Assembly: GCA_048213135.1 (NCBI GenBank) | Contig: PS015489.1 | Span: 115,024-135,023 of the forward strand | Length of the DNA: 20,000 nucleotides | Source of the DNA: Reclinomonas americana ATCC 50394 | Taxonomy: Eukaryota | Direction of reading: 5' to 3' | Shown here: in pieces, positions 1,361 through 19,356 of the stretch | Position numbering within the stretch: the first letter of the stretch is position 1 | Layout: every line of letters starts with the position of its first letter | Position numbers and translations under genes: made by a program | The notes under the pieces: model-generated | What the model saw: the letters and a program-made list of their open reading frames with translations, nothing else | Database searches by the model: none | What the model was told of the DNA's origin: nothing

Positions 1361-4300
1361 CTAGTGCGGGAAGAGCACGAATTCGACGGCAGGCGGAGGC
1401 GAGCGGATGAGATCGGTGGCGTCGGCGGCGATCAGGCGCACGGCGAGGAACGACATTTGCTCCAGAGCCACCACAGTGCTGTTGGCGGCCCACGTGCACA
1501 CCATGCGTTTTACGAAGCCGCTGCCGTCGCGTGGGAAGGCGTTGGGCGAGCGTGAAGATGTGGGCACCACCGGAACGCGGACCACGTGCATCCATGTGGG
1601 GTACGCCACACGGGCGCTCTCAAATACGCGCGGCCAAGGGATCTGTGCGGGAACGGGAATATGAGTGGCTGTCTCGCCAAGAGTCGAAGAAGCATCGGCA
1701 ACGTGCAACTCACCGATCGTTCGTAGCCATAGTACGGAACGTAGATGCGGATGGCGCGCCAGTCAAAGTCGAGCACGCACGCAGTGCAGCATCCGTCGAG
1801 CACAGAGGTGGCTCCGCGAGCGGCCAGTAGCTGCGAAGAAACCACGTGAGACCACCGCTTCGTTCGCAGAGAGAGAGAGGTGAGTGCCACGCAACTGCTG
1901 CCTGCTGCCTCAAGTTCTCCTGCACAAACAGCTCGGTGACTTGCTGCTGCACGTCACGTCTGAGCGACGTCAAGCGGTCGTGATGGAACATCTGCGAGCG
2001 TCTTCAGTTGCAGCTTTCACACATTTGGTATTCTATTTCAACGAACGTACCGCCCGGCGCAGTGTGGTGCGCGTCGGCATCGACAGCTTCTGCCCGATGC
2101 TCGTGCGCAGCATCTTGTGAACACCGCGATGCACCAGCAGATCCGAGTACCTCCGGATCGGACTGGTGAATTGCGTGTAGGCGTCGACGTTGAGCGAGAA
2201 GTGCATCAGGCCGGCCTGCGCGCGACCACACGTACTGTCAAGGAGGAGTAGAATATGCACAGCAAACACAACGACAACGCACTATTGCTTCGGTATTGGT
2301 GGTATCTGACACATCAAAAACGGTGTATCCGCCGGCACGCATGTACCGTGAAAACAGGTGAACCAGTGCCTGTGCGTGCACCATTCTCGAGTCAGTCTCA
2401 TGTACCGTCTCTCTATTTCGCGAGACGATAACAGTACCTCCTTCCTGACGTCCGAGTCGTTCAGTGCATCGACCAAGCGCATGCAGCGGCGCAAGTAGTG
2501 CAAATCGTCCTCTCCACGCTCCTCTTGCACTCGGAAAATGGCTTCGACGCAGCGCGCAAACGTCTGTCGGTGTGGTGACGGATCGCTGTTGCGTGCTGGT
2601 TGGTGGCGGAAAATGGCACCAAACTCCTGCAACTCCTGCCACTCCTCGGCCGTGCGTTGCTCCTCCGCAGGGCACGGTATCAATTCGCACACCGGTCCGA
2701 GTGTCGCCGGCACCGTCACTTCCGCTGCGCTCACAAACAATCACGCGAGGTGAGCTCACATGTGCGACGGTAAACTGCATCTTCGAATCACACCTTTGCC
2801 GCCACGTGAGGCACTCAGGCTCAAGAAGCGACGGAGATGAGCGGCGCAGTGCGTGTTGGCCAGATTCATGAGCTCCTCAATCATCTGTGCGGCCAAGTTC
2901 GGGCGCTCGAATGAAAGCTCCACAGAGCCCACTGTGTGCGTTGGCAGGGTGTGAGGCGACAGGGGGGAAATGAGGCGACACCAAACGACGACACTTGCAA
3001 GCACGCTCACCACCCGGCAACGCTGCGTCCTTGCGGTATGTGCCACCAAACACCTTCTCCGGACGATCGAGCGACAGCGCACCGCCAACCAGGCGCTGGC
3101 GGCGCAGGCTGGCGGTGATTCCGTACAGTGAGCGCACAGCGTTGAAGACATCCTCCACGCGCTCCGGCGGCACCGAACGCAAAGCGGCGGCCGACGGTGG
3201 GAGAGTGCCGTCGAGAATCGACTGCGCCGTCGGGTAGTCGAGAGCGACCCACGACGACACAACACTGGTGCACAGACGCGACGAGATGACGATAAAGTCG
3301 CCCGAGCCCTGTGCACACCACAAAAAGAGTGAGTGCGCACGAAAGATGTCACACGCATCTACTGAAGCAAACTCACCGGATCGTGGCGCACGCGCACGAG
3401 AACCGACAAGCACAAGCGCTCCGTGTTCGGGTTCAGGCTGCAAACGCCGGCCGAGATGCGCTCCGGCAGCATGGAGTCCACGGCACCGAATGGCGTGTAC
3501 ATGGAAATCGACGCCGCCTTGGCCGCCAAGTCGAGCTCCGATCCCTCGGGCACATAGGCCGCCACATCGGAAATGTGCACACCCAACTCAAACTCGCCAC
3601 CTGCGACTCGCAAATGTCAGCTGCAACTGCACGTACGAGTGCGGCAGTGAAGACGACAGACAAGCACGCACCACCGACATGGCGCAAGTGCACTGCATCG
3701 TCCATGACGTTGGTGTCGGGTCGGTCGATGGTGAAGACGCACTGTGCGCGCAGATCAACACGCTCCTCCAACACTGCACAGAGCATCTCGTGAACACATG
3801 CATCATCTGTCAATCCCACTTCCACCGACATGCAGCAGCGTACCCTTTGGATCGACACGCGCCTCGCTGCGCATGAGTCCCGGATATCGGTCGTCGACTG
3901 GCGCCGCTGTGGCGAATTCGGGGAGGCGGTAGAACAGTTCGGCGGCCTCGTCACGCACGCACTGGAATTGCAAAAAGTAGGCCACCTCCACGGTCTTCAG
4001 GTTGGAGGCGTCGCCCAGGACATCGGCCACACGTCGCACCGACGGGAAGCCTCGCTTCTCCGTCCAGTCGCCCAACTCCACCGAGAGGATCTTGCCCATC
4101 AATCCTTGCGGACCCGGCAGTTTGTGCGCATGCGCCGCACCCGTCATCTGCTTAATGTGCACGGCGCAGCGCGGCAGACGGCTGTTCAGCGGCTGAAGCA
4201 ACGTGAAGAATTCGCCGAGATTCGTCGAGTCGTCGAGGATGCCGACGGCGCGGACCACGCGCGGTCGGTCGGCGTACACGATCTCGCCAGTCACCACTGT

Positions 4301-4766
4301 TGCACAAACACCAGCAAATGATAACCAAGCACGAAACAGGGGGGAAATGCACAGGCATATCGCGGCACCTTCAGACAGTGTCCGGTCGCGCAGCGGGATG
4401 GGTGACGCGCTAACCTCGCCATCAGAAGTCGGCTGTGGCGCACAGTGAGCACGTTGCTCCTCAAACAGCACACATTGTTATCAATCCTCACACGTACCTC
4501 GTACAGGCTGACCACCACGTGGTCGCCATCGAGAGCACGATTGCGCAGCGTGGCTGACAGGATGCGCACGACACCACCATTGTCCAAGCCGACTTCGGCG
4601 TACGAGTCGCTCTTGCAGTAGAGGGTGCCCTCCATCAGCTTTCCCGATCGGCAGCCGGCGTCGAGTGACCGCGGCGACAAGTACGGAGTGTAGTTGTTGC
4701 TCGGCAGTCCTGGCGGACCGACTGCCTTGAGCGACGAGCCGCGTGGACGACTGCCACCGGCGTCAG
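1361..4766 (-). other. CSD1-CSD2-RNB-S1 region (DIS3/DIS3L2-type exonuclease core, no PIN domain)
   Basis: CSD1: [10 protein letters not shown]...GKLMEGTL...[17 protein letters not shown]2: PLNSRLP...[113 protein letters not shown]1: [22 protein letters not shown]. Confidence 0.93.
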
Positions 4767-7172
4767 CTGTGTGGCGAGGTGAGTGACAAGCACCCGACAG
4801 CAGGAGACATGAAGAAGTATGGACGAACCAGCAGCCGAAGCAGAGGGGAAGAGAGGACCACTGGTCACCTCGTCGACTGAGCCACCGTGCGCCTGGTTGA
4901 TGAGGATGGTATGTGTGCGAGCGCACGCGTCGACCAGCGCCTTGAGCAGCGGCGGCTTGTTGAAGGCCAGCAGATTGCAGTCGAATTGGACCGGATCCAC
5001 TGCGCGAGTAGGGAAAGAGGAAGATGAGTCGGGGGAAGTGATGCAGTGCGCTCTCGCCAGAATGCATGCACGTACCGACTACGAATTCACGCGCGTCATC
5101 TCCGACACGGTGAGACAAATGCACCGAGAGCGTCAGGTGATGGAGCGAGCACACGGCATCGGTTTGCCAATCAAAGTCACGCAGGTTGCCGAACAGCGAG
5201 AAAAAGTCGGCCACCACTGCTTCGGTCAGCGAGTCCTCCTGTTGACGGAAAAGCAGCAACATGAATACTCATAGAGCAAGCGCGCACACCACGCATTGCA
5301 CTATCTCTCTCACCTTCTTGGTGGGCACCGACAGAATTTCCGCGGCCAGATCCGACATGAGGAACGCGGTCTCGTCGTGCGACTCGGGATGGCGCACATC
5401 CTCCAGGCCGTGCGTCACCCACCCGGCCTGGAAGGCCTGCGCGCCGACCTTGACCATGAAGCCGCCAATCAGATCGGTCAGTGCGGGGAGGGCCAGGGCC
5501 GTCGAGTATGTCAGAGCTGGAGTGATCTGTGTTGACGTGCAGTCAGTCAGCATTGAGGGGGAGAAAGAGAGTTGGAGGAAGAGAAGAAACACGCAACATG
5601 TGGGTACGGCGCCAGCTGCTGGATGCGTGCATCTTGGAAACGCGCAAACACCACTTCGGCTAGCCGATCCAGCGCCTCAATACCGTCGGCACGCCGATTG
5701 CGCGACGTGCGCTCCAACACAAAGTACACCACCATGTGGGCGAGTGCCTCGAGCGAGATGGAGTCGTCATTCTCGAACCCCAACAGATCGGCACGGCACC
5801 ACGCGGTGAGTGACGGCAGCTTTGCTTGCAACGCCGCCACCACCTCTGCCGGATCCTGCAAGTACGGCACCGCGTAGCCACACGTGCGTGCCCAGTGAAT
5901 GACCGCATCCAGCAACTCCACAATCAGCTGTCGCTCTCGCGGTGTGTACGTCTCCAGTGCCTCATTCAGCGCCGTCATCTGCGACTCTAGTGTCAGTGGT
6001 TGCGGGGAGGGACACGACTGCCGAGAGACGCAACTCCAGCCATGCGCCAAAAGATGTTGATCGAGACGTTGAATCGCTGACTGGTGCACATGCAGTACAG
6101 ACCCGACTTGGCGCGATGCTTCATGCGCACGTCGGTGTAGTTGCCGGCTGAAGCACACACACACGAAATGGAAACAGAGTGTCAGAGGTAGTTCGAGAGG
6201 CGGGAAACAAAGGAGCAGAGAAGAGACAGCGCATAGAGAAAAAACGACAGACCTCTAGAGAAGGTGGCATGCTTCTCATTGAAGCAGAAATGTAACACTG
6301 AGTGCGGAGAGAGAGAGAGAGANNNNNNNNNNNNNNNNNNNNNNNNNNNNNNNNNNNNNNNNNNNNNNNNNNNNNNNNNNNNNNNNNNNNNNNNNNNNNN
6401 NNNNNNNNNNNNNNNNNNNNNNNNNNNNNNNNNNNNNNNNNNNNNNNNNNNNNNNNNNNNNNNNNNNNNNNNNNNNNNNNNNNNNNNNNNNNNNNNNNNN
6501 NNNNNNNNNNNNNNNNNNNNNNNNNNNNNNNNNNNNNNNNNNNNNNNNNNNNNNNNNNNNNNNNNNNNNNNNNNNNNNNNNNNNNNNNNNNNNNNNNNNN
6601 NNNNNNNNNNNNNNNNNNNNNNNNNNNNNNNNNNNNNNNNNNNNNNNNNNNNNNNNNNNNNNNNNNNNNNNNNNNNNNNNNNNNNNNNNNNNNNNNNNNN
6701 NNNNNNNNNNNNNNNNNNNNNNNNNNNNNNNNNNNNNNNNNNNNNNNNNNNNNNNNNNNNNNNNNNNNNNNNNNNNNNNNNNNNNNNNNNNNNNNNNNNN
6801 NNNNNNNNNNNNNNNNNNNNNNNNNNNNNNNNNNNNNNNNNNNNNNNNNNNNNNNNNNNNNNNNNNNNNNNNNNNNNNNNNNNNNNNNNNNNNNNNNNNN
6901 NNNNNNNNNNNNNNNNNNNNNNNNNNNNNNNNNNNNNNNNNNNNNNNNNNNNNNNNNNNNNNNNNNNNNNNNNNNNNNNNNNNNNNNNNNNNNNNNNNNN
7001 NNNNNNNNNNNNNNNNNNNNNNNNNNNNNNNNNNNNNNNNNNNNNNNNNNNNNNNNNNNNNNNNNNNNNNNNNNNNNNNNNNNNNNNNNNNNNNNNNNNN
7101 NNNNNNNNNNNNNNNNNNNNNNNNNNNNNNNNNNNNNNNNNNNNNNNNNNNNNNNNNNNNNNNNNNNNNNNN

Positions 7173-7254
<82 letters not shown>

Positions 7255-8103
7255 GGGAGGGGGAGGGAGAGAGCCCAAGAAGATCCCCAACTCTGGAGAT
7301 GCGAGCGTGCTCCTCAATGAAGCAGACATGCATCACCAACTGCTCATACAGAGACCAAGAAGAGATCTCTGAACTCTCAAACTCAGGGGAGACAAGAGCA
7401 ATCAGTGAAGCAGACATGGTGCTCACAGAGAGACTGTGAGACCAAGAAGAGATCTCTCTCAACCCAGCTTTGGCAAAGATGAGCACGCTCCTCAGTGAAG
7501 CTGCCATGACGCACCAACCTCATTCACTGCTCTTCCCAACTGCTCGTGGAGGAGAGATCACTACCCTCACTTCCCAATGCTCAGTGAGCGCCACCCATCT
7601 CCCATCTCCCATCTCCCATCTCCCTTCTCACCCTGCTTGAGTCGCCGAATGACATCCTTGATGGCGGCGACGCGTGCATCGGGATCGGCCTCGCACGTCG
7701 GCACCGCCGGCAATACCACATGCGACACCGACGCATCGACAAACGCCGGCACCGACTCGCGCTCAATCAACGACACTTGCAGAATGTCGCGCGTCGAGTG
7801 CAATGGCAGAAACGGCGACGCAGACAAGAGCACAGGATGACACTCAATGCCTACACAATGCGCGCCAAAAATTGATCAGCAATCAGAGACAAGTCAAACT
7901 GTCGCTGTTACTTCAGTGCGCGCGCATGTATATGTGTATGCAGAGAGAGCAGAGAGAGAGCGAGCGTGTGTGTGTGTGTGAGACAAGTGCGTGCGTTTGT
8001 GCGCGCGATGGTCGTGACACATGACCACGCAACTCTTGTGTGGCACGGCCAGTGCGACTTCCAGCTCGCGCAGACATGCCGCGCGTTGTGCGTCCAAGTC
8101 CAT
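1361..8103 (-). CDS. DIS3L2/RNase II-family (RNB) 3'-5' exoribonuclease with an N-terminal degenerate Cid1/TUTase/Trf4-like nucleotidyltransferase + PAP-associated module; about 1303 aa, 20 exons
   Basis: Exons: 8103-8034, 7850-7632, 6147-6035, 5978-5598, 5526-5314, 5238-5076, 4999-4829, 4766-4498, 4432-4369, 4296-3844, 3773-3672, 3600-3377, 3308-3011, 2931-2794, 2724-2438, 2369-2283, 2215-2051, 1991-1896, 1830-1714, 1642-1361. All introns are GT-AG, phases are consistent, and the total of 3912 nt ends in TAG. Extra exons could be hidden in the N gap. Confidence 0.8.
6307..7250. repeat. (GA)n microsatellite flanking the gap (6307-6322 and 7172-7250)
   Basis: Perfect GA dinucleotide runs on both sides of the N run. 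Confidence 0.95.
6323..7171. other. Assembly gap (849 N)
   Basis: Run of N flanked on both sides by (GA)n. Confidence 1.
7271..7520. repeat. Degenerate intronic tandem repeat, unit about 80-90 nt, about 3 copies
   Basis: GAGACCAAGAAGAGATCTCT at 7351 and 7438, with a variant at 7271. TGAAGCAGACATG at 7318 and 7406, with a variant at 7496. A related TGAAGCAGAAATG lies at 6280, on the other side of the gap. Confidence 0.7.
7594..7624. repeat. (CCCATCT)4 heptamer tandem repeat at the 5' end of the long intron
   Basis: cccatctcccatctcccatctcccatctccc. Confidence 0.9.
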
Positions 8104-8451
8104 TGTGAATGCGCGGGCTTGTCACAACAACCACGACAAAAAGGAGTTGTCCTGCAGCTGCATGCATGCAAACCCAGCGACGTCGAAGCTAGTCGTTCGC
8201 TGCCAGCTCATTCTTTGTACGCTTTACATAATGCTGCATACAAGTCGTCTGTGCAGCGAGCCTGATCGCGTCACGTCCATGCATCTTGCGCGACGTCGTG
8301 CATTGCAAACTTCGCCGTGAAGAATGCACCAGCTTGCTTCACACAACATGCACTACACCGCTTGAAGATGCATCGTACACCACTCTGTCTCAGAAGAAAG
8401 CTGTGATCGCATGCGCACAGGACACGCGATTGCACGGACCCCCACCCATAA
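8104..8451. promoter_or_regulatory. Putative bidirectional promoter / head-to-head intergenic region (348 bp)
   Basis: Lies between the divergent ATGs at 8103 (-) and 8452 (+). Inferred from gene geometry only; no core motif identified. Confidence 0.45.
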
Positions 8452-9665
8452 ATGCGTCTTTTGAGCGCAACTTGCTTTGCACTTGCTCTGTGCCTGGCCG
8501 TGGTGCTGTCGCTCAGCGCAGCGCCCACTCATGCAGTGCCACCCACCATGCCTCTGTACTATCAGATGGAGTGGGTGCTGTGGCATGTTGCGTTTGTGTT
8601 TCTCCGAGGTTGACTGCACACACTCCAACTCACTCGCGCGCACATCAGGTGGACGAAGACAACATCCCGCCTCCATATGGACTCACTCCGCCTCCGAATG
8701 CGCATGTGGAACAAGGCCGCGGTCGCACGTTTTACGACTGGACGCAGCGCGCAATGATCGAGATGTGTGTGCACAAGAAGAAGCTTGTGTATTGTGTGGA
8801 TCGTCAGCTGCTCATCTTGTTTTTTGGTTGCAGTTACGACGACTTTTGTGTCAACATCTTCCCCGATCCCACTGACCATCCGGGCCCATGCAAGTTCCTC
8901 AATGTCAACGAGACCTCGTTTCGCACCACTCTGCGTCGACTCATCACTCGCAGCCGGAGGTCTCACTCGTTTGACTGAACGCAGGTACTTGATCAACAGT
9001 GATCCGGTGCACTACCCCAACGATCCCGTGTGCTGCGTGTTTTCGGTGCGTTTTTTGCCGCGATGCTTGTGATGTCGTGTGTCGTCTCACTGCGGCAACA
9101 GCACAACTTCCATCCTCCGGCGCCGACCTTCTTGATCGACAACAAGGATGTGATCCCGAATGGAGTTGCGTGACTCTCGCTTCCGTCTCTTGCTCTCTGT
9201 CTGCGACCTCTCATCTGTGCTGTGCAGATGTCGTACATTGGCTCGGCTCCGGTTCGTGGCACTCATGCGAAGCGAGAAATGCGTGCGCTCACTCACGTGT
9301 GTGTTGCAGGTCACCTGGTACGAGGTGCCGAAGGGTGATGGCGCGCCATTCAACTATGGGTGCGGAATATCTCCCGTCGTCACTCATCCTCTGCAGCACT
9401 CTTGCTCACCTTCTTTGTCCTCGCTCAGCTTCTACGACGAGAAGGCGCCGGTGCCGGCCGCCTTTAGCTTCCCTGCCGTCACGGTTCGTGGGCGCGTGCT
9501 GTGCTCACCGTGTCACGCCTTCGTGAGTTCTCACCTGTGCAATTGCGCACGCAGGGTTGGGACTGGCAGCGCTTCTACAACTTCCGCGCCGCCAAGCCTG
9601 ATCCGAGCGTCTTCCACCTGGATCCGCGTTGCCTCACTGCCGACTACTGCAAGATCCACCTGTAA
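8452..9665 (+). CDS. Secreted ependymin-related (EPDR/LolA-fold)-like protein, about 232 aa, 9 exons
   Basis: Exons 8452-8586, 8649-8764, 8834-8917, 8985-9045, 9102-9164, 9228-9251, 9310-9359, 9429-9483 and 9555-9665 have consistent phases and end in TAA. Signal peptide MRLLSATCFALALCLAVVLSLSA, then PPTMPLYYQ, GRTFYDW, CCVFSHNFHPPAPTFL, and C-terminal FYNFRAAKPDPSVFHLDPRC, which resembles EPDR-like proteins. The gene model is secure; the family call is tentative. Confidence 0.7.
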
Positions 9666-9866
9666 TGCGACGCCGCGTTCACCAACAACAGCAGCAACAA
9701 CACAACACAACAAATTTCAATTTTTTCAACGTAGGCACAAAAAACATCTCAACATTTCGAGAAAAAACACAGTGAACAACAACAACACAGAGAAGCACAC
9801 GCAGCTAATCACGGTGTTCTCTTTTTTAAGAGTACAAATACAGCAGTCTTGCAACTGCAAAACGGA

Positions 9867-12800
9867 TTAGAAGAGTTTGGTGAGGACGTCGCCGACTATC
9901 AGTTCCACGCCGAAGCAGCCGCACAGGGACATGGTGAGGAGTTTGATGGGCTCTGTCAAACGGCGGTTAAGACTCTGCTCTGCTGCACAAGCGGCGCGTA
10001 CATGTAAAGCACACTCACCGTTGATGAGCCAGTCCTCGAGAATGCTGAAAGCCGACGAGTTCAACACCGACCGTGATTCGGATTTCACCAGAATCGCGGC
10101 CGTGTTGAGCAGCGCCAAAAACGTGCAGAAAGCACCTGCAGCACATGTGTTAGGGGGACGTCACAACACCAACTGCTGCGGCCGCAACGCACACACACGT
10201 ACCAATAGTCCAGCACGCCGCCAGACCCCAGTACTGCGTGGGGAAAATGCCAAAGTTAGTGATCAGCAGCAAATGCACGCGCGACGACAAGAACAACGTG
10301 TGTATCGCACCACGAGTGTGTATGGCAGTGTTTTGGCTCGATACCGAGCAAAGAGACGACCGAACCAGCCTGAACATGAACACACGGTGGAGTTGGTATT
10401 GTTTCATGCAACAAGTCAGGGGATACTACGACACCTTTGCCGGTGACATCCGCAGCGACAAACTCGTTATCCAAGACACTGTTCAAGTCGGCAGTATTCT
10501 CGTTTGCTTCCGCGGAGCTGTCGTTGTTGTCCGGAGATCGCAGTGCTTTGTGGCGCACCAACGGGACTTTAACAGGGGTGCCCGAATGCGCCGACTCCAC
10601 GTCCGACTCTGCCACCAGACGACTTGATCATGAGCACACAAGCATGCACAAAAACATAAAATGAATGCAACACTTGCCATCGTCACTCCACGAAGCAACG
10701 TCGTCTCCAATCAGCAACAGGTGCTTTGTTGGCGTGCCCTGTCGGTGAAAGAAAACAATCAATGAGCACGGCAGGAATGAACACATAATTTCTGGCGGCA
10801 CGCACCGGAAGGGAGCCACCGTCGCTAGCGAGCGCACCGGTCATCCTCTGTCGTTGTTGGTTGGCCAACATCAACGGCAGCGGCGGAAGACGATGCCTGC
10901 CCCTGTGTTCATCCGGCTGTTGTGGCTCGCCTTGCGCGCCTCTGGCCGCCAGCAACCTCGTCAACCATCCACTTTGCCCTTGGCTGACCATCAACGGCGC
11001 AGTTGGCCGCATCTCCGTGGGCGATATCTGACCGGAACGAACGAAGGCCACCATTGCCTGTCCATCCTGCTTGCGCACTCAACTCGTCAGTAGCTGCAAC
11101 AGCATCGCGAGACACCACCAGCACGATATCAAACCGTCGGCACCGGCACGATTGGAATCAAATCAGGCAAGCGGCCATCGTCGGTGCTGACAGTGAGCGG
11201 ATGCGGCGGCTTTTGCACGAGCTCCACTGAGGTGTTCGAGTCCGTTCGTGACACTGCACATGTAACACATGAGACGCAAGAAATGGCAGACGCGCCTTGG
11301 AGGGATGACGACACGCTCACCAGTGCTAGCGCTCATAATCGAGTGCCTCTTGCCATCTCCCTCAGCAGCATCAATCTCGCGCACCAGCGCCTTCAACTTG
11401 GTGAGCTCGCCAACCTCGAAATACGTGTCGCGGAGCGTCACGCGCGGAGTATGATCTGCGAGATTCATCAGTCTCGAGTAAAACGCGATAAAGCGGTTGG
11501 CAAGTGATTTGGGTCCGCAACTGAATGGTATGCTCATCAAGAACGCAAAGGGGAATACGATCAAGCCTGCAATCACAACACACAACATGAGCCAGAGTGC
11601 ATTCTGGGGTAACAAAAACAAAGCTTCATCTCACACGCACCAGTAATGATGCCTGCATAGCCACACATGAGGTAAAAGGTGAGAATATTGCACATGTCTT
11701 CTTGCGGCAATAAAAACGAGGCACATACCAATGTAGAAATCGCGCAGGAGGTCGGTGAGCAACGACGCCTCGGCCTGGTTGGCAAAGATGCTGTTGATCC
11801 ACATCATGAAGCACACGGTGACCCAGAGCGTCTGCACAACACCGTTAGTTGCCGACAAGCACTCAGTTATACGCTATCGCCGCTGACGAAACAGTGAGGC
11901 GCTGGTACTTGCGGAATGGATCGATACGAGTGCCAAACACGGTAGAGAGCCTGCAATTAGAGAGAATGCACCACGGTGTCAGGAGATGCACGCGCGCGCC
12001 ACGATATTCAGTGTCGATTCACTTACCAAGCGTGGTGGTGCAGGAAAAGGCTTCGGGTTTTGGCTGTCCACTTGACGAAACGATTGCGCTCTCGCTCATG
12101 CTCAATCACACGAGTCACCAAGCCTGCGAACAAGAACAAGACCAAATCAGTTAGCAGACGAGAAGAGCGGTGGTGCGAGTGAGTACATCGACGAACCGCG
12201 GAATCGTGCAATCGCCTCCATGTGCACACGGATCGCCTCACGCTCACTCTCGGGGATGAGCTGTTTTTCCTGCTCCGGCTCTGCGTCATCGTCGAGCTCC
12301 TTGCCATGCCCACTGCTCTCCTCCCCACCGACAGCCTCCCTCTCGCCATCCAACGGCATGTCCACCGTGGTCTCCACAACACCCGTTCCGGCCGCAGTGA
12401 CCTCCTCCGCCCGAGCCTCGGGTGCCGACAGCAGTGCCAGCGGGGACTCGGAAACATCGCCGGGCGTACGTCCGTGCGACCGCTCAGCACTGGCAGCACT
12501 CGCCGAACTGTCAGTCCGCATGCGAGTGAGAGGAGAGGCTCTGGCACCCAGCGATGAGGAGCGGTTGCGCAGTCGGAAGGGCGAGCTGGACGACGAATTC
12601 ATGTCTTCGTCAGCCAGCAGCGCCTTGTCGCCTTCGCCAGCAGCCGCAGCCGCCTTGGCCGCCAGTTGCCGCCGCTGACGCATGACCGCCATTACGACAT
12701 CGCTGCCAAAAGACACCAGGGAGTTGAGTGGAGAGTGCAGTGCAAGTATCAGAGAGCAGTGGTTGACGCACGCGAATGAGAAGATGCCACGATACGGTGG

Positions 12801-15800
12801 GAGGTCGGCCTGCGAGTGCGCAAGACATGAGTGAGATCATCCCTTGCGCAGCGATGCGGATGCAAGTGAGAAAGACCTCAGATCGTTTCAGAGCACGCCG
12901 TGCAATGATGCGTCGCGCCCAGTACTCTCGCACCGCCAGATCGTTGGCTTTGTCGATCTTCCGCAGCACAAAGTAGAGAATCACGTACGCAATGTGAAGC
13001 ACTGCATGCGACGACTTGTTCAGTTCAAGAGCTGGCATTGAGACGTGCACGAGTGCTGCAACGCAACGCAAGAGGAAGAAAAAGTTGGGGCTGACCCACA
13101 AGGCGGGTGTCAACAACAATCCGATTTCGGCCGGACTCGTAAACGTGAACTGCAAGTCAAAGATCTACACGAGCACGCACAGTGTGAGAAGGCAATCACA
13201 GACGCACTACGCAACATGAGAAAGAGAGCAACGTACTGCTGCCACGTCCACGGAGAAGTCCGTCGCATGATTGCAGGCACAGTACACGCTGGTCAGATTG
13301 CCAGAGGCACCGACAGTGGCGAACGAACGGCAGCCCGCCGGCGAGAATGCTTGCGCAGTCTGATGACGAGCTGCCATGAGTACCACGACACGACGACGCG
13401 AGAAGCACAACGAAAAAGTCGCAACTGGGTCCCAGGCGACGCACAGATCCAGGCGCCGCGGCAAGACACCCGAGGTGATGTTCAGCGCGTGCGGCATTGT
13501 GGTGTTGCAGATATTATCCAGTGGCACAAGACCGGTGGGGATCGAGAACGTGGCATTGCACTGTGTTGACCAAGTGAGAAACGTGCAACAAAGCATTGTG
13601 TAAGACAATCCCCACGTCGCACACAGCACACACCAGTCTCATTGCTTGCAGCACCTTGCGCTGTGAGGCAGAGCATGTCTCAGACAAATTTCGTACTTCT
13701 GCTGCCGCACACACAACAAAGGCAGGTGACGCACGAAATTCTCTTGCACGGCATCCGGAATCACTTGACCGCCCATCTTGATGAGGAGCTCCTGCGGCTG
13801 ATTCTTGACTTCGATGGGTGAACCACGGCTGTCGTAGAACTCGATTCGGTGAATCGGTGCAGCGAGCCACGTGCGCGCCTGCTTCGTGGCCAGGATGCTG
13901 GTGTATGGATTGGTCGAATTGGAATGCTGCACCACAAGCGCCGTGGCATCGTTGAGCGTTGAGTTGAGTGACTGCGTCGCCAGCAACACCGAGCCAAGGT
14001 GGGAAGTCGCTGAGTCGTCCGCCAGCAGTGCGCCAGTTGGATTGGCACCAGAGTACGACTGCACATGCCGGCAGTTCAGCACTGCTGCCCAGCATCACTC
14101 GAGCACAATACACACACACGTACCTGCACGCCAGGCGCGTCCACGTTGTTCGTCAACCGAGCGCCGACGATGCGAGAATACGCGCCACCCGAGTAAACAA
14201 AGGGATCGTCAGTCGCCTGCACACATTTTCCATCAGTCTCTCACGCGCACACACATTCATGCACATTGAGATCGAGGTGTCACGCACGCGCTGGGCGACA
14301 GAGGCCTTGACCACGTTCTCAACCACCGCCGAGCTGCGATCAACAATGGCATTGAACAGAGTCGACTTGCTGTCTGTGGTGGCCGATACCGATGTGCTCA
14401 GCAGCGAGTCGGCAATCTGGAGCACATGCTGGGAGACACAACAGTGGACACGTTGTTAGCGGCAGCGTGATCGCAACACACAACCACAATGAGGTTACCT
14501 CACGCTCGGCGGAGGTCAACACAGAGCTGGAACTGGCGACGTTTTGCAACGCCGACATGACTCCATCGGCCACGCCCGCGACAGTCACTGACGTCGGTGA
14601 CAGAAGCGGAACAGAGCTACGCGAAGAACATAGAGTGAGAGGAAGGAGCGTCAGCGCGGTTGCACGAGGCGCTCAGTCATCAATGTGTGCAGACCGCCCA
14701 CCTGCTGAGAATACGAGCACTCTGCAGCACCACTCGCGCCGCGTCCGGGAACGCTTGGCCGTCGATCAGTGACGACGCGCTTCCAAGGCGCGACGCCATC
14801 ATCGCCAAGTAGTTCTCAACCTGCGGACCTGCGTCACGATAGCACACTCGCCGCATTAGCGACACGGACGTGACGTACACAAACGCAAAACCAAGTGTAT
14901 CGAACCATTTCCGCCATTCAACACCTGCTGCAAGTTGGCGGAACCGTCGGCAAGGCTCAGCGTGGAGTACAAGGAACATGCCGCAGTGATGGCTTCTGAG
15001 GACGTGGTGAGTGGGCCTGCTGCGGTTGCCGCTGCCGCCGCCGCCGCTGATTCTCCGACAAATGCGTTTGCGCGACCGAGGGCCGTGGAGAGAGCCGGAT
15101 CTCGCGCCACCGTCACCGTCGTGGTAGCCGAGGTACTGCGCAATGAATGGGTCAGCCCAACTGCGCACTTGTGCTGCCAAAACGCACTAGGAACACGAAC
15201 CCTGCCAGCAAATTGTCATACACCGTCACGCCCACCGACAGAATGTTGCCGTCGCTCACTCCCGCCGGCAGAGTAACACCCGCAAGGGTCGAAGAGGGCT
15301 GTGAACCCAAAGGGACCATGGAGCCGGTAGCAGACACGTAAAAGAACGTGTAGGACAGCGGCACACTGCAGCAAGTTGCTTGAGCACGGGGACGGAAGAA
15401 ACAACAGCCGGCGAGAGAGACGCAACTCGTCATCAGTAAAACCAGCGGCCGTGATTGTAAACTTGGTGGAGCGTTCAACGCCACTGGCGGGCGAGATCGA
15501 GACGGTGCCCAGCGAAGGCGGACGATTCATCTCCAGGGTGATCGAACCGGTGGCGGAGTCTGTTCGACCGGTGAGTCGACGAGGATATTACGTGCCCACA
15601 ACCACATGACGCAACTAGATCCGGTGACGTTCAGCACGATCTGGTACTTGCGGCCGGCGGTAAATGTGTTTGCCGGCACAGTGAGCGCGCTGCGGTTGCT
15701 GTTGGTGGCCAGCGGCACCGGTGTGTTGGGAGTCGAGGTCACATCCGTGACCCCCCACGAGTAGTTGACAGAGTCGCCGGCAGCCAGTGACACCTTGCTG

Positions 15801-18800
15801 TCCACCAGAATAATCTTCGCCGCATCGTAGCGCGACAATGACACTCCGCCAGACGTCGTCTGCGCACAATGAAGGATGAGTGCCACGATTTGCCGAAGGG
15901 AGAAGAGACCAAGTGGATCGCTGACACACCGTCAACAAGACGCCGACCGAGCCAGCGACAGTGAACGACGCGGTGGCGGTGGCGGATCGCCCGCCGCGCG
16001 AAGCACTCACTCGGAAAGTGTACCTATGTGCGAACGAGATAAGCGACCATGGGAAGTCACGTGAAACCTTCAGTGAGACGACGCAACACTCCGGCCACCA
16101 GCTCGGTGCCCGACAACTGGATGGACTCGGCAACACTATTGTCGCGAGCACACGGTTGTGCTTTGCTGCCGTCGGCAGGTGTCACTGTGCACGCCCAACT
16201 GACTGTCGCAGGCGCCAGGTTCTGCACAACTGACAAATCAGCAATCGCCGAAGAAACAAGGGCCCGACACACACCACGAACCAGAATCGGTGCCGTTGCC
16301 GCGTCCGGATCGCGCAAGACCGCGGTGAGCGTCTTGGTGCCGCCCACAGGCACCGAGCCACCGTCGCCATCGATAGCCAAGCTGAGAGGACGAGTCACTG
16401 CAGGGGACAGAATGGTGCGACGGTGAGCACGCTCGTGTCAGCACAGCATGCAGGAAAACACACACAGCCGTACCCAGTGCCTGCACCCGCCACCCGGAGC
16501 GCTGATCGGTCTCATTTGAGATGAAGCGGATAGCACCGGTGTTGACACCGAGCAGTATCGACTGCGTGGGCACGGTGGAGCCAGTGAGCGCCAGCCGGGT
16601 CACCGCTTGCCCAGCGTCGGCGTACAGCGTCAGCGAGTCGTCGGTGGCCAAATCGAGTTGCGTGACCAGCACGACCACGGTGCCGGAAGAGGTGACACCC
16701 GATGCAAGCTGGGGAAAGGAAGGATGAGGAAGAGTACACACTCTGGACGACACACACACGGCGCACCCCGAATGTCCACGTGCAGTCGAGATCCGGCATG
16801 TAGGCCGGCACACTGGTGGTTCGGTCGGCCAGCGTCACCAGTGTTCCCGGCGTAAGCGTCACGGCGGTCAATGCGGCACAGGTGGGTGTGGCCACCGTCA
16901 GCGAGACTGGAGTCTTGACAAACGCGGCGACTGCGTCCTGATAAAAGTCGACGCACAGGTCGACTTGCACGCCACGCGCCTCAGTGGACGGAGACGCGAT
17001 GCGAAGTAGTGCCGTACGTCCATAATCGGAAACGCTGACAACAGTGACCGTGTAGCCAGTGGCGTTGTTGGCCGAGCACGACGAGCCGGCCAACACCGTC
17101 CTCCACGAGTCCACGCGCGACAGGCCACTGCTCGGCAGGCGCACCGTGCGCGCCACAGTCATACCGGACACCAGTGTGGGATTTGCGGCCGTCATGGTGG
17201 TGACGTCGGGAACAGGAATAATGTGCTTGATGCGCCCTTGACTGTTGATGGAACGCTCGCCGGCAACGACCCAACCAGTCTGCCGATTCACATCGAGACC
17301 GTCGCCGTACATGATCATATTCGTGTCGGCATTGGTCAGCCCAGCACAGCGGTCCGTGCCGCTCTTCGTGAACGGCTTGTATTTGAGAGCATCGCGCATC
17401 GGGATGTCGTCCTATTCGAGTGCGCTTCTCGGTGAGTGACGGACGATTACAGGCACACGGAGGGCAACTGCTGTCTGCACGCAACAAGCACAGACGTCGG
17501 AACAGCGGCTGACAGCGAGGTGGAGCCTCTGTTGGGGCCACAGTATGTGGCAAGACTGCCCATGACAAGAACAGCTGGGAGCGCGTGGTCGCTGGTGTCG
17601 AACGCCCACAACTACGAACAGCAAAGGAGGTGAGTGATGGAGGAAGTGGGAGACACGCAGTGCGCGACGCAACTCCGCTTGTCGAGAGATCGTACACATA
17701 CATGATGTTGTCGGGTCCTTGCGCTACACACACACAGTGGCACGTCAGGAGACGGAGGGAGAGGCAGAGAAATCACGAAGGTAACGCACCCAGTACACGA
17801 GGGGCGGGGATGGCCGAAGTGGCGGCCACGGTGGAGATGACGCCGTTCCGATCCACGTAGCGCACAGCAAAGCTCGGCCCCTCACTCTCCGTGTAGTAAA
17901 AGCCGCCGTTCTTCGACAGAATCACATCGGTGGCCGACGATGCAGTGGCGCTCGTCGCCGGGATCTGCTCGCCGCCAAAGACGCTATTATTGGTGCCGTT
18001 GCCGGCAACAAATCGCTGGCCCGACACCGGATTGTTGAGAGGCACCCAGATAACCTGTGTGTACAGGTGAGATGGACGCGACCTGGAACACAAAAAGCAA
18101 TAAAGTGAGAGAGCCACGCAACTCCACTGCCACCGTAGCTGGCAGCCAGTAAACCAGGCGGCGGAGTCGGCAGCTGCACGTTGGAGGTACCGGCCGGCAC
18201 GAATCGCGGGTGGCGCAGATTGGTGGCAGGAGCAGCGGCGGGAGCGAGGACCTGCAAGTTCGTCGGATTGCCCGACGCATCCAGATTGGAGACTGCACGG
18301 GTGCGTGAGTGGACGAACAGCGCTAGCGCGCGCACAACACATTGCCACAACAAGCGTACCCAGAACACGGCCACCGGTCCACTCGTTGAAGTAGACCTTC
18401 GTGCCGTCGGTGTTGAAGTCCAGCGCGTGCAACACCTGCGCAGCGAGTGAGGTCACATTTCTCTCGTGCTGCTGCGAAGGAGACGCAACATTGGGCGTGC
18501 GCGTGGCAGGCGAGCCGGGAACCGCGGGATCGGTGGCCATCGAGTACGCAGCGTTGCAGACGCCAACAACCGGAGTGAGATTGGTCATCGCACCAAAGTT
18601 GAGCAGGTCCACATCGTAGCGCTTGCAGCAACTCGAATCCGTCGAGCACGCCCACACACTGCCCAGCGTCGGATGGATCTTCAAACCCACAACGTTCCTC
18701 AAGCCAAGCGCCGCCGTGTTCACGGAAACCACGCGGAAAACCGGGCGCGGAATCGGCGAGTCAATCACCAGCGTTGTCGGACCTGTAATCATCATGGTAC

Positions 18801-19356
18801 GATAAGCCAATCAATCACACTTGTGTGACAGCGCGCCTGAACACACCATCGTCTCCACTGAAGGCTGCCGAGCCCGCGAACTTGGCACACAACCGATAGA
18901 GATCCGGTTGGGCATTGCGCGGGACCGCAATGATGACAACGAACGAGGCATCGCTCTGGCGAACCGCGCTGGTGATTGATATCAATGTAGAGCTGCTCCC
19001 TGCCGCACACGTCTCTGCGTTGCGCACAAACGCCTGCACAGAGAGAGAGAGAGAGAGAGCGGGGCGGGAGTGAGTGGGCAATGTCACACTCACCACACGA
19101 AAACTCTTCTCGCAGCGCAGCGCTCATGCTCAACAAATGAATCCGTGTCACTGAAGTTCGTGCTGCCTGCTGCGCCTGACATGTTCAACCGCAGGCCACG
19201 AGGTGCGCTCTTTCCCGCGACAATCGGCACACCGGGACTGCTGTCCACAATCGTGATGAAAGCGGCGGGAGACGCAGCGGCCATACTCGCGCACAGCACC
19301 AGCATTGTCACGGCCACTGTCACCAGCGACGCAGTAACAAGCGCGCGGGTCCTCAT
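9867..19356 (-). CDS. Polycystin-1/PKDREJ-like cell-surface receptor: signal peptide, NHL-like propeller, CUB, REJ, GAIN/GPS, 5 TM; about 43 exons
   Basis: ATG at 19356 starts a signal peptide (MRTRALVTASLVTVAVTMLVLCASMAAA). The spliced frame is continuous to TAA at 9867 through about 42 short introns. REJ: NRPPSLGTVSISPASGVERSTKFTITAAGFTDDDVPLSYTF. GPS: CVAWDPTAQAFSPAGC...CACNHATDFSV. PKD1-type TM motifs: HAWLSTVFGTRIDPFRKYQRLTTLWVTVCFMMWINSIF, IGIITGLIVFPFAFL, LPYTLVYWGL, SAFSILEDWLINEPIKLL. Confidence 0.85.
10609..10677 (-). other. GC-AG intron
   Basis: Donor G|GCAAGT and acceptor GGCAG|. This join keeps the frame (WSDD-E-SDVES); nearby GT alternatives give a frameshift or a TAG. Confidence 0.7.
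13237..13450 (-). other. GPS motif (C-terminal end of the GAIN domain)
   Basis: After removing intron 13360-13425 the sequence reads CVAWDPTAQAFSPAGC...VYCACNHATDFSV, closely followed by TM1. Confidence 0.85.
15100..16400 (-). other. REJ module of the PKD1-like protein
   Basis: LSLAIDGDGGSV...LRDPD, VSWAC, YTFRVSA, YSW, LTVPANTFTAGRKYQIVLNVT, NRPPSLG, PLSYTF, TLPAG, VYDNLLA. Confidence 0.8.
16474..16880 (-). other. CUB domain of the PKD1-like protein
   Basis: YMPDLDCTWTF...VVVLVTQLDLATDDSLTLYAD...LTGSTVP...AIRFISNETDQRSGW. Confidence 0.75.
17200..18782 (-). other. NHL/teneurin-like beta-propeller repeats of the PKD1-like protein
   Basis: VAGNGTNNSVFGGEQIPATSA...DVILSKNGGFYYTE...VRYVDRNGVISTVA; ALDFNTDGTKVYFNEWTGGRV; GLDVNRQTGWVVAGE. 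Confidence 0.7.

Follow-up and report, generated by a model that had tools for sequence, protein, structure and literature searches.

We found that the 20,000-nucleotide (nt) stretch of Reclinomonas americana ATCC 50394 DNA analyzed here (assembly GCA_048213135.1, contig PS015489.1, positions 115,024 to 135,023 of the forward strand; hereafter the window, numbered from its first letter) carries on its minus strand a single gene, in which a long N-terminal extension precedes an RNase II-family exonuclease that lacks a PIN domain. This conclusion is well supported, as is the conclusion that the extension of about 432 amino acids (aa) is coding and belongs to the same gene as CSD1, the first domain of the exonuclease. 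The explanation that we prefer, and to which we give an even chance of being correct, is that this one gene combines a PIN-less exonuclease of the DIS3L2/RNase R type with a lineage-specific, catalytically dead nucleotidyltransferase (NTase) module of the Cid1/TUT type, composed of a palm and a central/PAP_assoc part. That the extension descends from an NTase, that it is inactive and what it does are inferences, for which the arguments on both sides are set out below.

The G+C content of the window is approximately 55-62%. On the minus strand from 8121 to 1361, the stop-to-stop open reading frames (ORFs) changed frame every few hundred bases, and these changes coincided with GT...AG boundaries and pyrimidine-rich tracts, which indicated a eukaryotic gene interrupted by numerous short introns. 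Exons were chained ab initio by dynamic programming, in which any ATG and any GT-AG intron of 40-2600 nt were allowed, a crude splice score was applied, and the codon log-odds were trained on the 547 codons of the homology-supported CSD1, CSD2 and RNB exons only. The resulting model occupies 1361..8103 on the minus strand, from an ATG at 8103 to a TAG at 1361-1363, and consists of 16-19 GT-AG exons encoding 1185-1248 aa. When the intron penalty was set to -6, -10 and -14, the model contained 19, 17 and 16 exons and 1248, 1219 and 1185 aa, respectively, with the start and stop unchanged. Its N-terminal exons were identical at all three penalties (8103-8034, 7850-7632, 6147-6035, 5978-5591, 5516-5314, 5238-5091, 4999-4862 and 4766-4467), and the hand-placed boundaries agreed with those of the chainer except at 5598, 5526 and 5076, where the two sets lay a few codons apart. 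An initial annotation of this DNA had described one phase-consistent spliced ORF of about 1303 aa; the chainer recovered the ORF, its start, its stop and its first seven exons, and the length was revised to the range given above.

The first seven exons, which lie upstream of CSD1 and together comprise 1297 nt, each had a codon score above zero in the frame of the model, between +0.18 and +0.53 per codon. Among the other frames of these exons, 33 of 35 scored negative, the exceptions being one reverse frame each of exon 3 (+0.29) and exon 6 (+0.02). Reading the eight predicted introns in all frames gave 48 scores, 44 of them negative and four weakly positive (at most +0.18), and only one of 12 readings in the two flanks of the gene was weakly positive (+0.04). 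Additionally, exon 7 is read in a frame that differs from that of exons 6 and 8, and the frame of the read-through ORF scored negative there. The introns between exons 3 and 9 measure 56-170 nt and therefore leave no room for a gene boundary. In particular, the junction between the PAP_assoc-like exons and CSD1 is spanned by introns of 76-95 nt, and no ATG in the CSD1 frame was found either from the acceptor to the conserved residues of CSD1 or elsewhere ahead of CSD1 within coding-like sequence; two separate genes at this point are thus very unlikely. At the other end of the gene, the ATG at 8103 is the first ATG and lies 18 nt past an in-frame stop. The minus strand farther upstream, from 8150 to 9800, contained stops and no coding signal as judged by codon score, and this finding, together with the plus-strand coding signal that lies beyond, makes 8103 a credible 5' end.

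The gene model was also examined at its splice donors, where we first noticed the heptamer GTTGCGT at three N-terminal exons. The window contains 18 copies of this motif against 5.3 expected (3.4-fold), a number reached by none of 200 shuffles. All four minus-strand copies within the gene (8027-8033, 6028-6034, 5591-5597 and 1889-1895) are positioned at 5' splice sites that had been predicted beforehand, with donors at 8033, 6034, 5597 and 1895. The strand of the motif was that of the local coding sequence for 15 of the 18 copies, with exceptions at 2588, 16657 and 19810; the plus-strand copies include those at 8587-8593 and 9165-9171. As judged from this distribution, GTTGCGT looks like a preferred and unusual donor motif of the organism.

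The exonuclease half is organized in the order CSD1, CSD2 and RNB, followed by a C-terminal region. The RNB catalytic domain (2051..3773, minus strand) is spread over 5-7 exons and was matched by the Pfam RNB family, by bacterial RNase R in tblastn and by Protein Data Bank (PDB) entries. Six exon or ORF pieces matched Pfam RNB (PF00773), with best E-values of 1e-20 and 3.2e-13, and together they covered profile positions 1-28, 30-103, 106-175, 191-218 and 291-325 of 326. The assignment of this half to the RNase II/RNB family is solid. The CSD2 exon (3820..4296, minus strand) matched the Pfam OB_Dis3 family (PF17849) with an E-value of 9.9e-7. For exon 8, which corresponds to CSD1 (4498..4766, minus strand), the three best PDB matches were DIS3L2 chains (8e27, 8e29 and 4pmw) aligned over their N-terminal CSD1, although these matches were weak (E 0.11-0.2). 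The C-terminal exons and the stop (1361..1991, minus strand), which were kept by the chainer, occupy the place of an S1 domain. No S1-type Pfam match was obtained on these exons at E<=1, with short exon fragments as the queries, so that the missing S1 match is not evidence of absence; an S1 domain at the C-terminus would follow from position alone. No PIN family was present among the Pfam matches of 29 translations from the gene region. The initial annotation had claimed a complete CSD1-CSD2-RNB-S1 enzyme without PIN; of these features, RNB, CSD2 and the lack of PIN are borne out by Pfam, CSD1 is weakly matched and S1 is undetected.

DIS3L2 is a PIN-less, exosome-independent 3'-5' exoribonuclease of the RNase II family that degrades uridylated RNA, and the absence of the PIN domain sets it apart from DIS3 and DIS3L1. 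The window gene resembles DIS3L2 in the order CSD1-CSD2-RNB with a subsequent C-terminal region and no PIN, in the best PDB matches of its CSD1, in the Dis3-type Pfam model of its CSD2, and in the best natural PDB match of its RNB exon, which was mouse DIS3L2 (E 6.1e-11), followed by RNase R (1.2e-10), Rrp44/DIS3 (about 4e-6) and RNase II (2e-5); a designed protein ranked higher on a short repeat-like stretch. It differs from DIS3L2 in the extension ahead of CSD1 and in the undetected S1. On the RNB core, however, the bit scores of DIS3L2 and RNase R (45.7 vs 44.8) amount to a tie. Bacterial RNase R also matched the RNB region in tblastn. A word-based protein search with an 85-aa RNB piece returned only bacterial RNase R-type proteins, 15 in number, with 40-58% identity, another search found 45 bacterial loci, and neither search yielded a eukaryotic RNB homologue. 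In contrast to bacterial RNase R, the window gene has spliceosomal-type introns, a CSD2 of family PF17849 rather than PF17876 or PF08206, and the long N-terminal extension. Searches with the CSD2 exon (148-161 aa) revealed no relative among 1247 candidates in a word-based search of a 5.8-billion-cluster collection (E<=0.001), no PDB match at E<=1, and no confirmed case among 252 pattern matches in a scan of metagenome contigs. From these comparisons we favour a DIS3L2-like enzyme, with another PIN-less branch as a less probable option. The DIS3L2-type label of the initial annotation is favoured by the best natural PDB matches of CSD1 and RNB, with the qualification that RNase R scores about equally on the RNB core. 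We also considered an organellar DSS1-like enzyme and tentatively rejected it, as the N-terminus of the model is acidic and appears unlike a presequence.

The RNB motif I was located at 3697-3726 and motif IV within 2051-2215, both on the minus strand. According to the portions of PMC8097288 that describe these motifs, the family form of motif I is DxxxxxDxDD and the Dis3L2 form is DPxxxxDLDD; Asp 1, 3 and 4 bind magnesium and constitute an 'active site signature', and Asp 2 contacts the terminal 3'-OH. The window gene retains all three magnesium-binding Asp residues (1, 3 and 4) and carries Val at position 2, with another Asp three residues earlier. Aligned by tblastn, the bacterial RNase R sequences P0002, P0003 and P0013 have Asp at the Val position, and the Val also departs from the Dis3L2 form given in PMC8097288. 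Because of this substitution, full exonuclease activity is not certain, which counts against an intact degradative enzyme in our preferred explanation. The magnesium-binding signature is thus retained in an enzyme that is otherwise atypical.

As for the extension, its exons were scanned singly against the 24,736 families of Pfam at E<=10. Exon 6 (5076..5238, minus strand; 54 aa) on its own matched PAP_assoc (PF03828) with an E-value of 0.042 and 14.6 bits, and no other family was found for it at this threshold. The match aligned exon 6 residues 9-38 (5125-5214) with profile positions 6-33 of 60, so that exon 6 would hold the first half of a PAP_assoc-like domain and the remainder would fall in exon 7 (4862..4999, minus strand; +0.45 per codon). 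The match is positioned at the exon and site where PAP_assoc had been predicted beforehand in the initial annotation, and a D-P...N motif (4974-4997) is found in exon 7 at the right distance after it. In a profile search made for comparison, PF03828 was found in none of 14 control genomes and not in the one bacterial genome.

The remainder of the NTase skeleton was assigned by eye against the Cid1/TUT consensus, and this mode of assignment itself weakens the case. In this alignment, exon 1 (8034..8103, minus strand), which begins with the start codon, scores +0.18 and ends at a GTTGCGT donor at 8033, would supply the first helix of the module, and exon 2 (7632..7850, minus strand; +0.23), which the chainer kept at all penalties, would supply the NTase core. 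The third catalytic carboxylate would be expected in exon 3 (6035..6147, minus strand), which has the highest codon score (+0.53) and a GTTGCGT donor at 6034. In exon 4 (5598..5978, minus strand; 127 aa; +0.33; GTTGCGT donor at 5597), which is helical, an insert of about 40 aa separates the H-W-A helix (5889-5900) from the hydrophobic helix at 5712-5762. Exon 5 (5314..5526, minus strand; 71 aa; +0.43), for which no Pfam match was found, would be a linker or insert. The presumed order is thus a first helix, a strand-loop-helix, an acidic strand, the strand of the third carboxylate, the H-W-A helix, the hydrophobic helix and PAP_assoc. Both this order and its spacing appear to fit Cid1/TUT proteins well, the exon 4 insert and exon 5 being the extras, and we take this fit as a lead only.

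The same presumed alignment was used to read the active site. The position that we take to be hG[GS] reads S-A-S in exon 2 (7816-7824), the presumed DxD position reads D-I-L, also in exon 2 (7780-7788), and the position assumed to hold the third carboxylate is the Met of C-M-C in exon 3 (6086-6094). The glycine of the GS motif and two of the three carboxylates are therefore replaced in the by-eye alignment, and the first Asp is kept. If this alignment holds, the module is one that could not catalyze nucleotidyl transfer, and activity of the module appears unlikely.

Several results weigh against the NTase assignment. The PAP_assoc score lies below the gathering cut-off (14.6 vs 22.6 bits) and covers half of the profile only, the match was absent when the 325-aa ORF containing exon 6 was scanned at E<=1, and an unrelated family, DUF5321, reached an equal strength (E 0.043) among the 64 translations scanned. 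Six of the seven N-terminal exons had no Pfam match of any kind at E<=10, and no family of the Pol-beta palm (NTP_transf_2 type) was found at this level on exons 2, 3 and 4. A phmmer search of exons 2, 3 and 4, two fragments of exon 4, and exons 6 and 7 against 177,635 PDB sequences revealed no terminal uridylyltransferase (TUTase) or noncanonical poly(A) polymerase (ncPAP). With exon 4, no match was obtained at E<=0.001 by HMMER among 1.84 billion representatives, none of 4731 candidates was a relative in a word-based search of longer proteins in the 5.8-billion-cluster collection, and, in a scan of metagenome contigs, none of 597 pattern matches was confirmed. In the ESM Atlas, exon 4 had no usable match and exon 6 matched RRM clusters at 0.77 and 0.75, which is below the level of a lead. 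Prediction of exon 4 alone by AlphaFold in single-sequence mode gave five long helices with a pLDDT of 47.9 and a pTM of 0.38, which is too unreliable for a fold search.

These results invite the alternative that the gene is as modelled and that its first 432 aa evolved rapidly as a lineage-specific extension of helical or regulatory nature with no relationship to NTases, in which PAP_assoc and the other motifs arose by chance. We consider this a possible but less probable account. It would explain why every search was blank except for one sub-threshold Pfam match, with a spurious match of the same E-value in the same scans, and why all supposed catalytic residues but one are missing, as a non-homologue would show. 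It also has a parallel in the divergent N-termini of fungal Ssd1/Dis3L2, with which the extension can be compared; in the available passages of PMC8097288, the N-terminal regions of Dis3L2 homologues are described as aligning poorly. This account is less successful with the Pfam result itself, as the sole match among all families scanned was the one predicted in advance for exon 6, and the D-P...N continuation follows at the right distance in exon 7. The periodicity of the hydrophobic helices and the strong codon bias are, moreover, not those of low-complexity sequence. On balance, the identification of the extension as a Cid1/TUT-like NTase module appears plausible, and that it is a degenerate member of this type seems to us about an even bet. 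The initial annotation had found the motif skeleton of Cid1/TUT/Trf4 enzymes in the first 430 aa or so; the first half of PAP_assoc is the part that acquired some statistical backing, at a sub-threshold E-value, and the rest acquired none.

The intron between exons 2 and 3 (6148..7631, minus strand) is the weak point of the gene model. It measures 1484 nt as scaffolded, in comparison with 46-183 nt for all other introns, and contains 850 N at 6323-7172. Its frames all had negative codon scores, except for one (+0.09) in the short flank at 6148-6300. We found (GA)n at both edges of the gap (6307-6322 and 7173-7273) and, on either flank, a repeat unit of about 64-80 nt whose copies (6253-6316 and 7291-7354) share 72% identity; a 20-nt repeat core is present in four copies at 7271-7489, and the 7-nt repeat CCCATCT is present in five copies at 7594-7629, directly after the exon 2 donor. 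The occurrence of the same repeat and of (GA)n on both flanks is as expected from an assembly break within one repeat array.

The gap raises the question of whether exons 1 and 2 come from another gene or another place through a scaffolding error, so that the true start would lie beyond the gap, the ATG of exon 4 (5978) being one candidate. The disproportionate length of the gap intron speaks for such a merged model, as do the codon scores of exons 1 and 2, which are the lowest of the N-terminal exons, and the fact that exon 4 opens with an ATG that is the first of its open frame. However, we regard the merged model as unlikely. Exons 1-3 were kept by the chainer even at the harshest intron penalty, the splice phases agree across the gap, the donors of exons 1 and 3 are both the enriched GTTGCGT, and the two gap flanks share the repeats described above. 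The codon score of exon 3 is the highest of the N-terminal exons, and this exon has a splice acceptor but lacks a start codon in its frame, so that it requires an exon upstream.

The least probable account, which we consider very improbable, is the active tail-and-degrade fusion raised by the initial annotation, in which a working N-terminal TUTase/ncPAP tails RNA for the exonuclease of the same chain. In its favour, tailing and decay are carried out by physical complexes in other systems, as outlined for RET1 and DSS1 in the MPsome (PMC5159558) and for Tailor and Dis3L2, and the gap could in principle conceal an exon. Against it, no hidden exon is needed to complete the phase and the spacing across the gap, no NTP_transf_2-type Pfam match was found, and the aligned positions (S-A-S, D-I-L and C-M-C), which lack the glycine of the GS motif and all but the first of the catalytic carboxylates, disfavour this reading.

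We return to the preferred explanation, a dead NTase module at the N-terminus of a PIN-less exonuclease. Such a module would be unable to add nucleotides and may instead act in cis as an additional platform for RNA 3'-ends or for a binding partner, in the manner of the inactive NTD1 of TUT4/7. It could retain substrates, which may carry U-tails, or recruit an active TUTase as a separate protein to a site beside the CSD/RNB funnel, and this funnel would degrade the retained substrates in the 3'-5' direction. We consider less likely than not the more specific proposal that a Cid1/TUT-derived pseudo-enzyme has been fused to a DIS3L2-type exonuclease as a built-in reader of RNA 3'-ends or U-tails, or as a docking site for a free TUTase, which would place the uridylation-decay axis in one polypeptide. 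The initial annotation had offered, as its second option, an exonuclease that captured an NTase fold as a 3'-end or U-tail reader; the sequence permits this option, with the NTase fold itself still putative.

We compared the predicted module with the NTD1 of TUT4/TUT7. No zinc finger or zinc knuckle was seen in the window gene. In the portions of PMC6488673 that deal with this domain, the inactive hTUT4 NTD1 is described as keeping Asp412 and as having Asn414 and Arg468 at the second and third positions, and the same pattern of one kept and two lost carboxylates is present at the aligned positions of the window gene. According to the same passages, NTD1 has a Cid1-type NTase fold, is a binding platform joined to an active RNA enzyme, and in TUT4 binds Lin28 and pre-let-7 (PMC6488673). 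The two cases differ in that the partner of NTD1 is an active TUTase, whereas the putative NTase fold of the window gene is joined to an exonuclease.

A second comparison concerns systems in which uridylation and decay are linked. In trypanosomes, RET1 and DSS1 form a complex, the MPsome, as outlined in PMC5159558, and in Drosophila, Tailor works with Dis3L2, as outlined in PMC6344859 and PMC5311484. As in these systems, a Cid1-family module would be held physically to an RNase II-family exonuclease in the window gene; in contrast, the systems outlined in these sources are non-covalent assemblies of two active enzymes, and the window gene would encode one chain whose NTase-like part looks inactive. 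In every uridylation-decay system that we found in print, as far as the texts describe them, the TUTase and the RNase II-family exonuclease are distinct polypeptides, which may associate into complexes. The literature search, which covered titles and abstract openings outside subscription journals, found no description of a TUTase and an RNase II-type exonuclease in one chain, in agreement with the statement in the initial annotation that no described protein with this architecture was known.

If confirmed, the gene would represent a new fusion of two known families whose functions are linked; no relatives of the lineage were detected in the searched collections, and the source organism appears to have no close sequenced relatives there. 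Were the preferred explanation true, the fusion would provide independent evolutionary evidence, of the 'Rosetta-stone' kind, that both folds work as a unit even with a dead NTase half. It would also offer a one-chain model for the handover of a 3'-end from an NTase-type pocket to an exonuclease funnel, and it would be a second case, after the NTD1 of TUT4/7, of an NTase fold reused as a binding module. If the extension is unrelated to NTases, the gene product would be a DIS3L2-like exonuclease that is divergent and carries an orphan domain at its N-terminus, and the gene would be of modest interest.

The neighbouring genes were also inspected. Downstream of the exonuclease gene, a minus-strand ORF at 3-572 that runs off the window start matched Pfam Mem_trans, a family of auxin-efflux-carrier-type transporters, with an E-value of 4.3e-5, just under the cut-off. 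Upstream, the minus-strand region at approximately 13200-19000 showed coding signal throughout, nine GTTGCGT copies on its own strand, and weak Pfam matches to GPS (E 0.00099, 13207-13638) and REJ (E 0.0018, 15527-15931); it looks like the gene of a large polycystin/REJ-like membrane protein. Between these, on the plus strand at approximately 8450-9900, we observed codon signal at 8751-8900 and 9501-9650 together with two GTTGCGT sites and no Pfam match, which suggests a divergently oriented gene that would have a short promoter region in common with that of the exonuclease.

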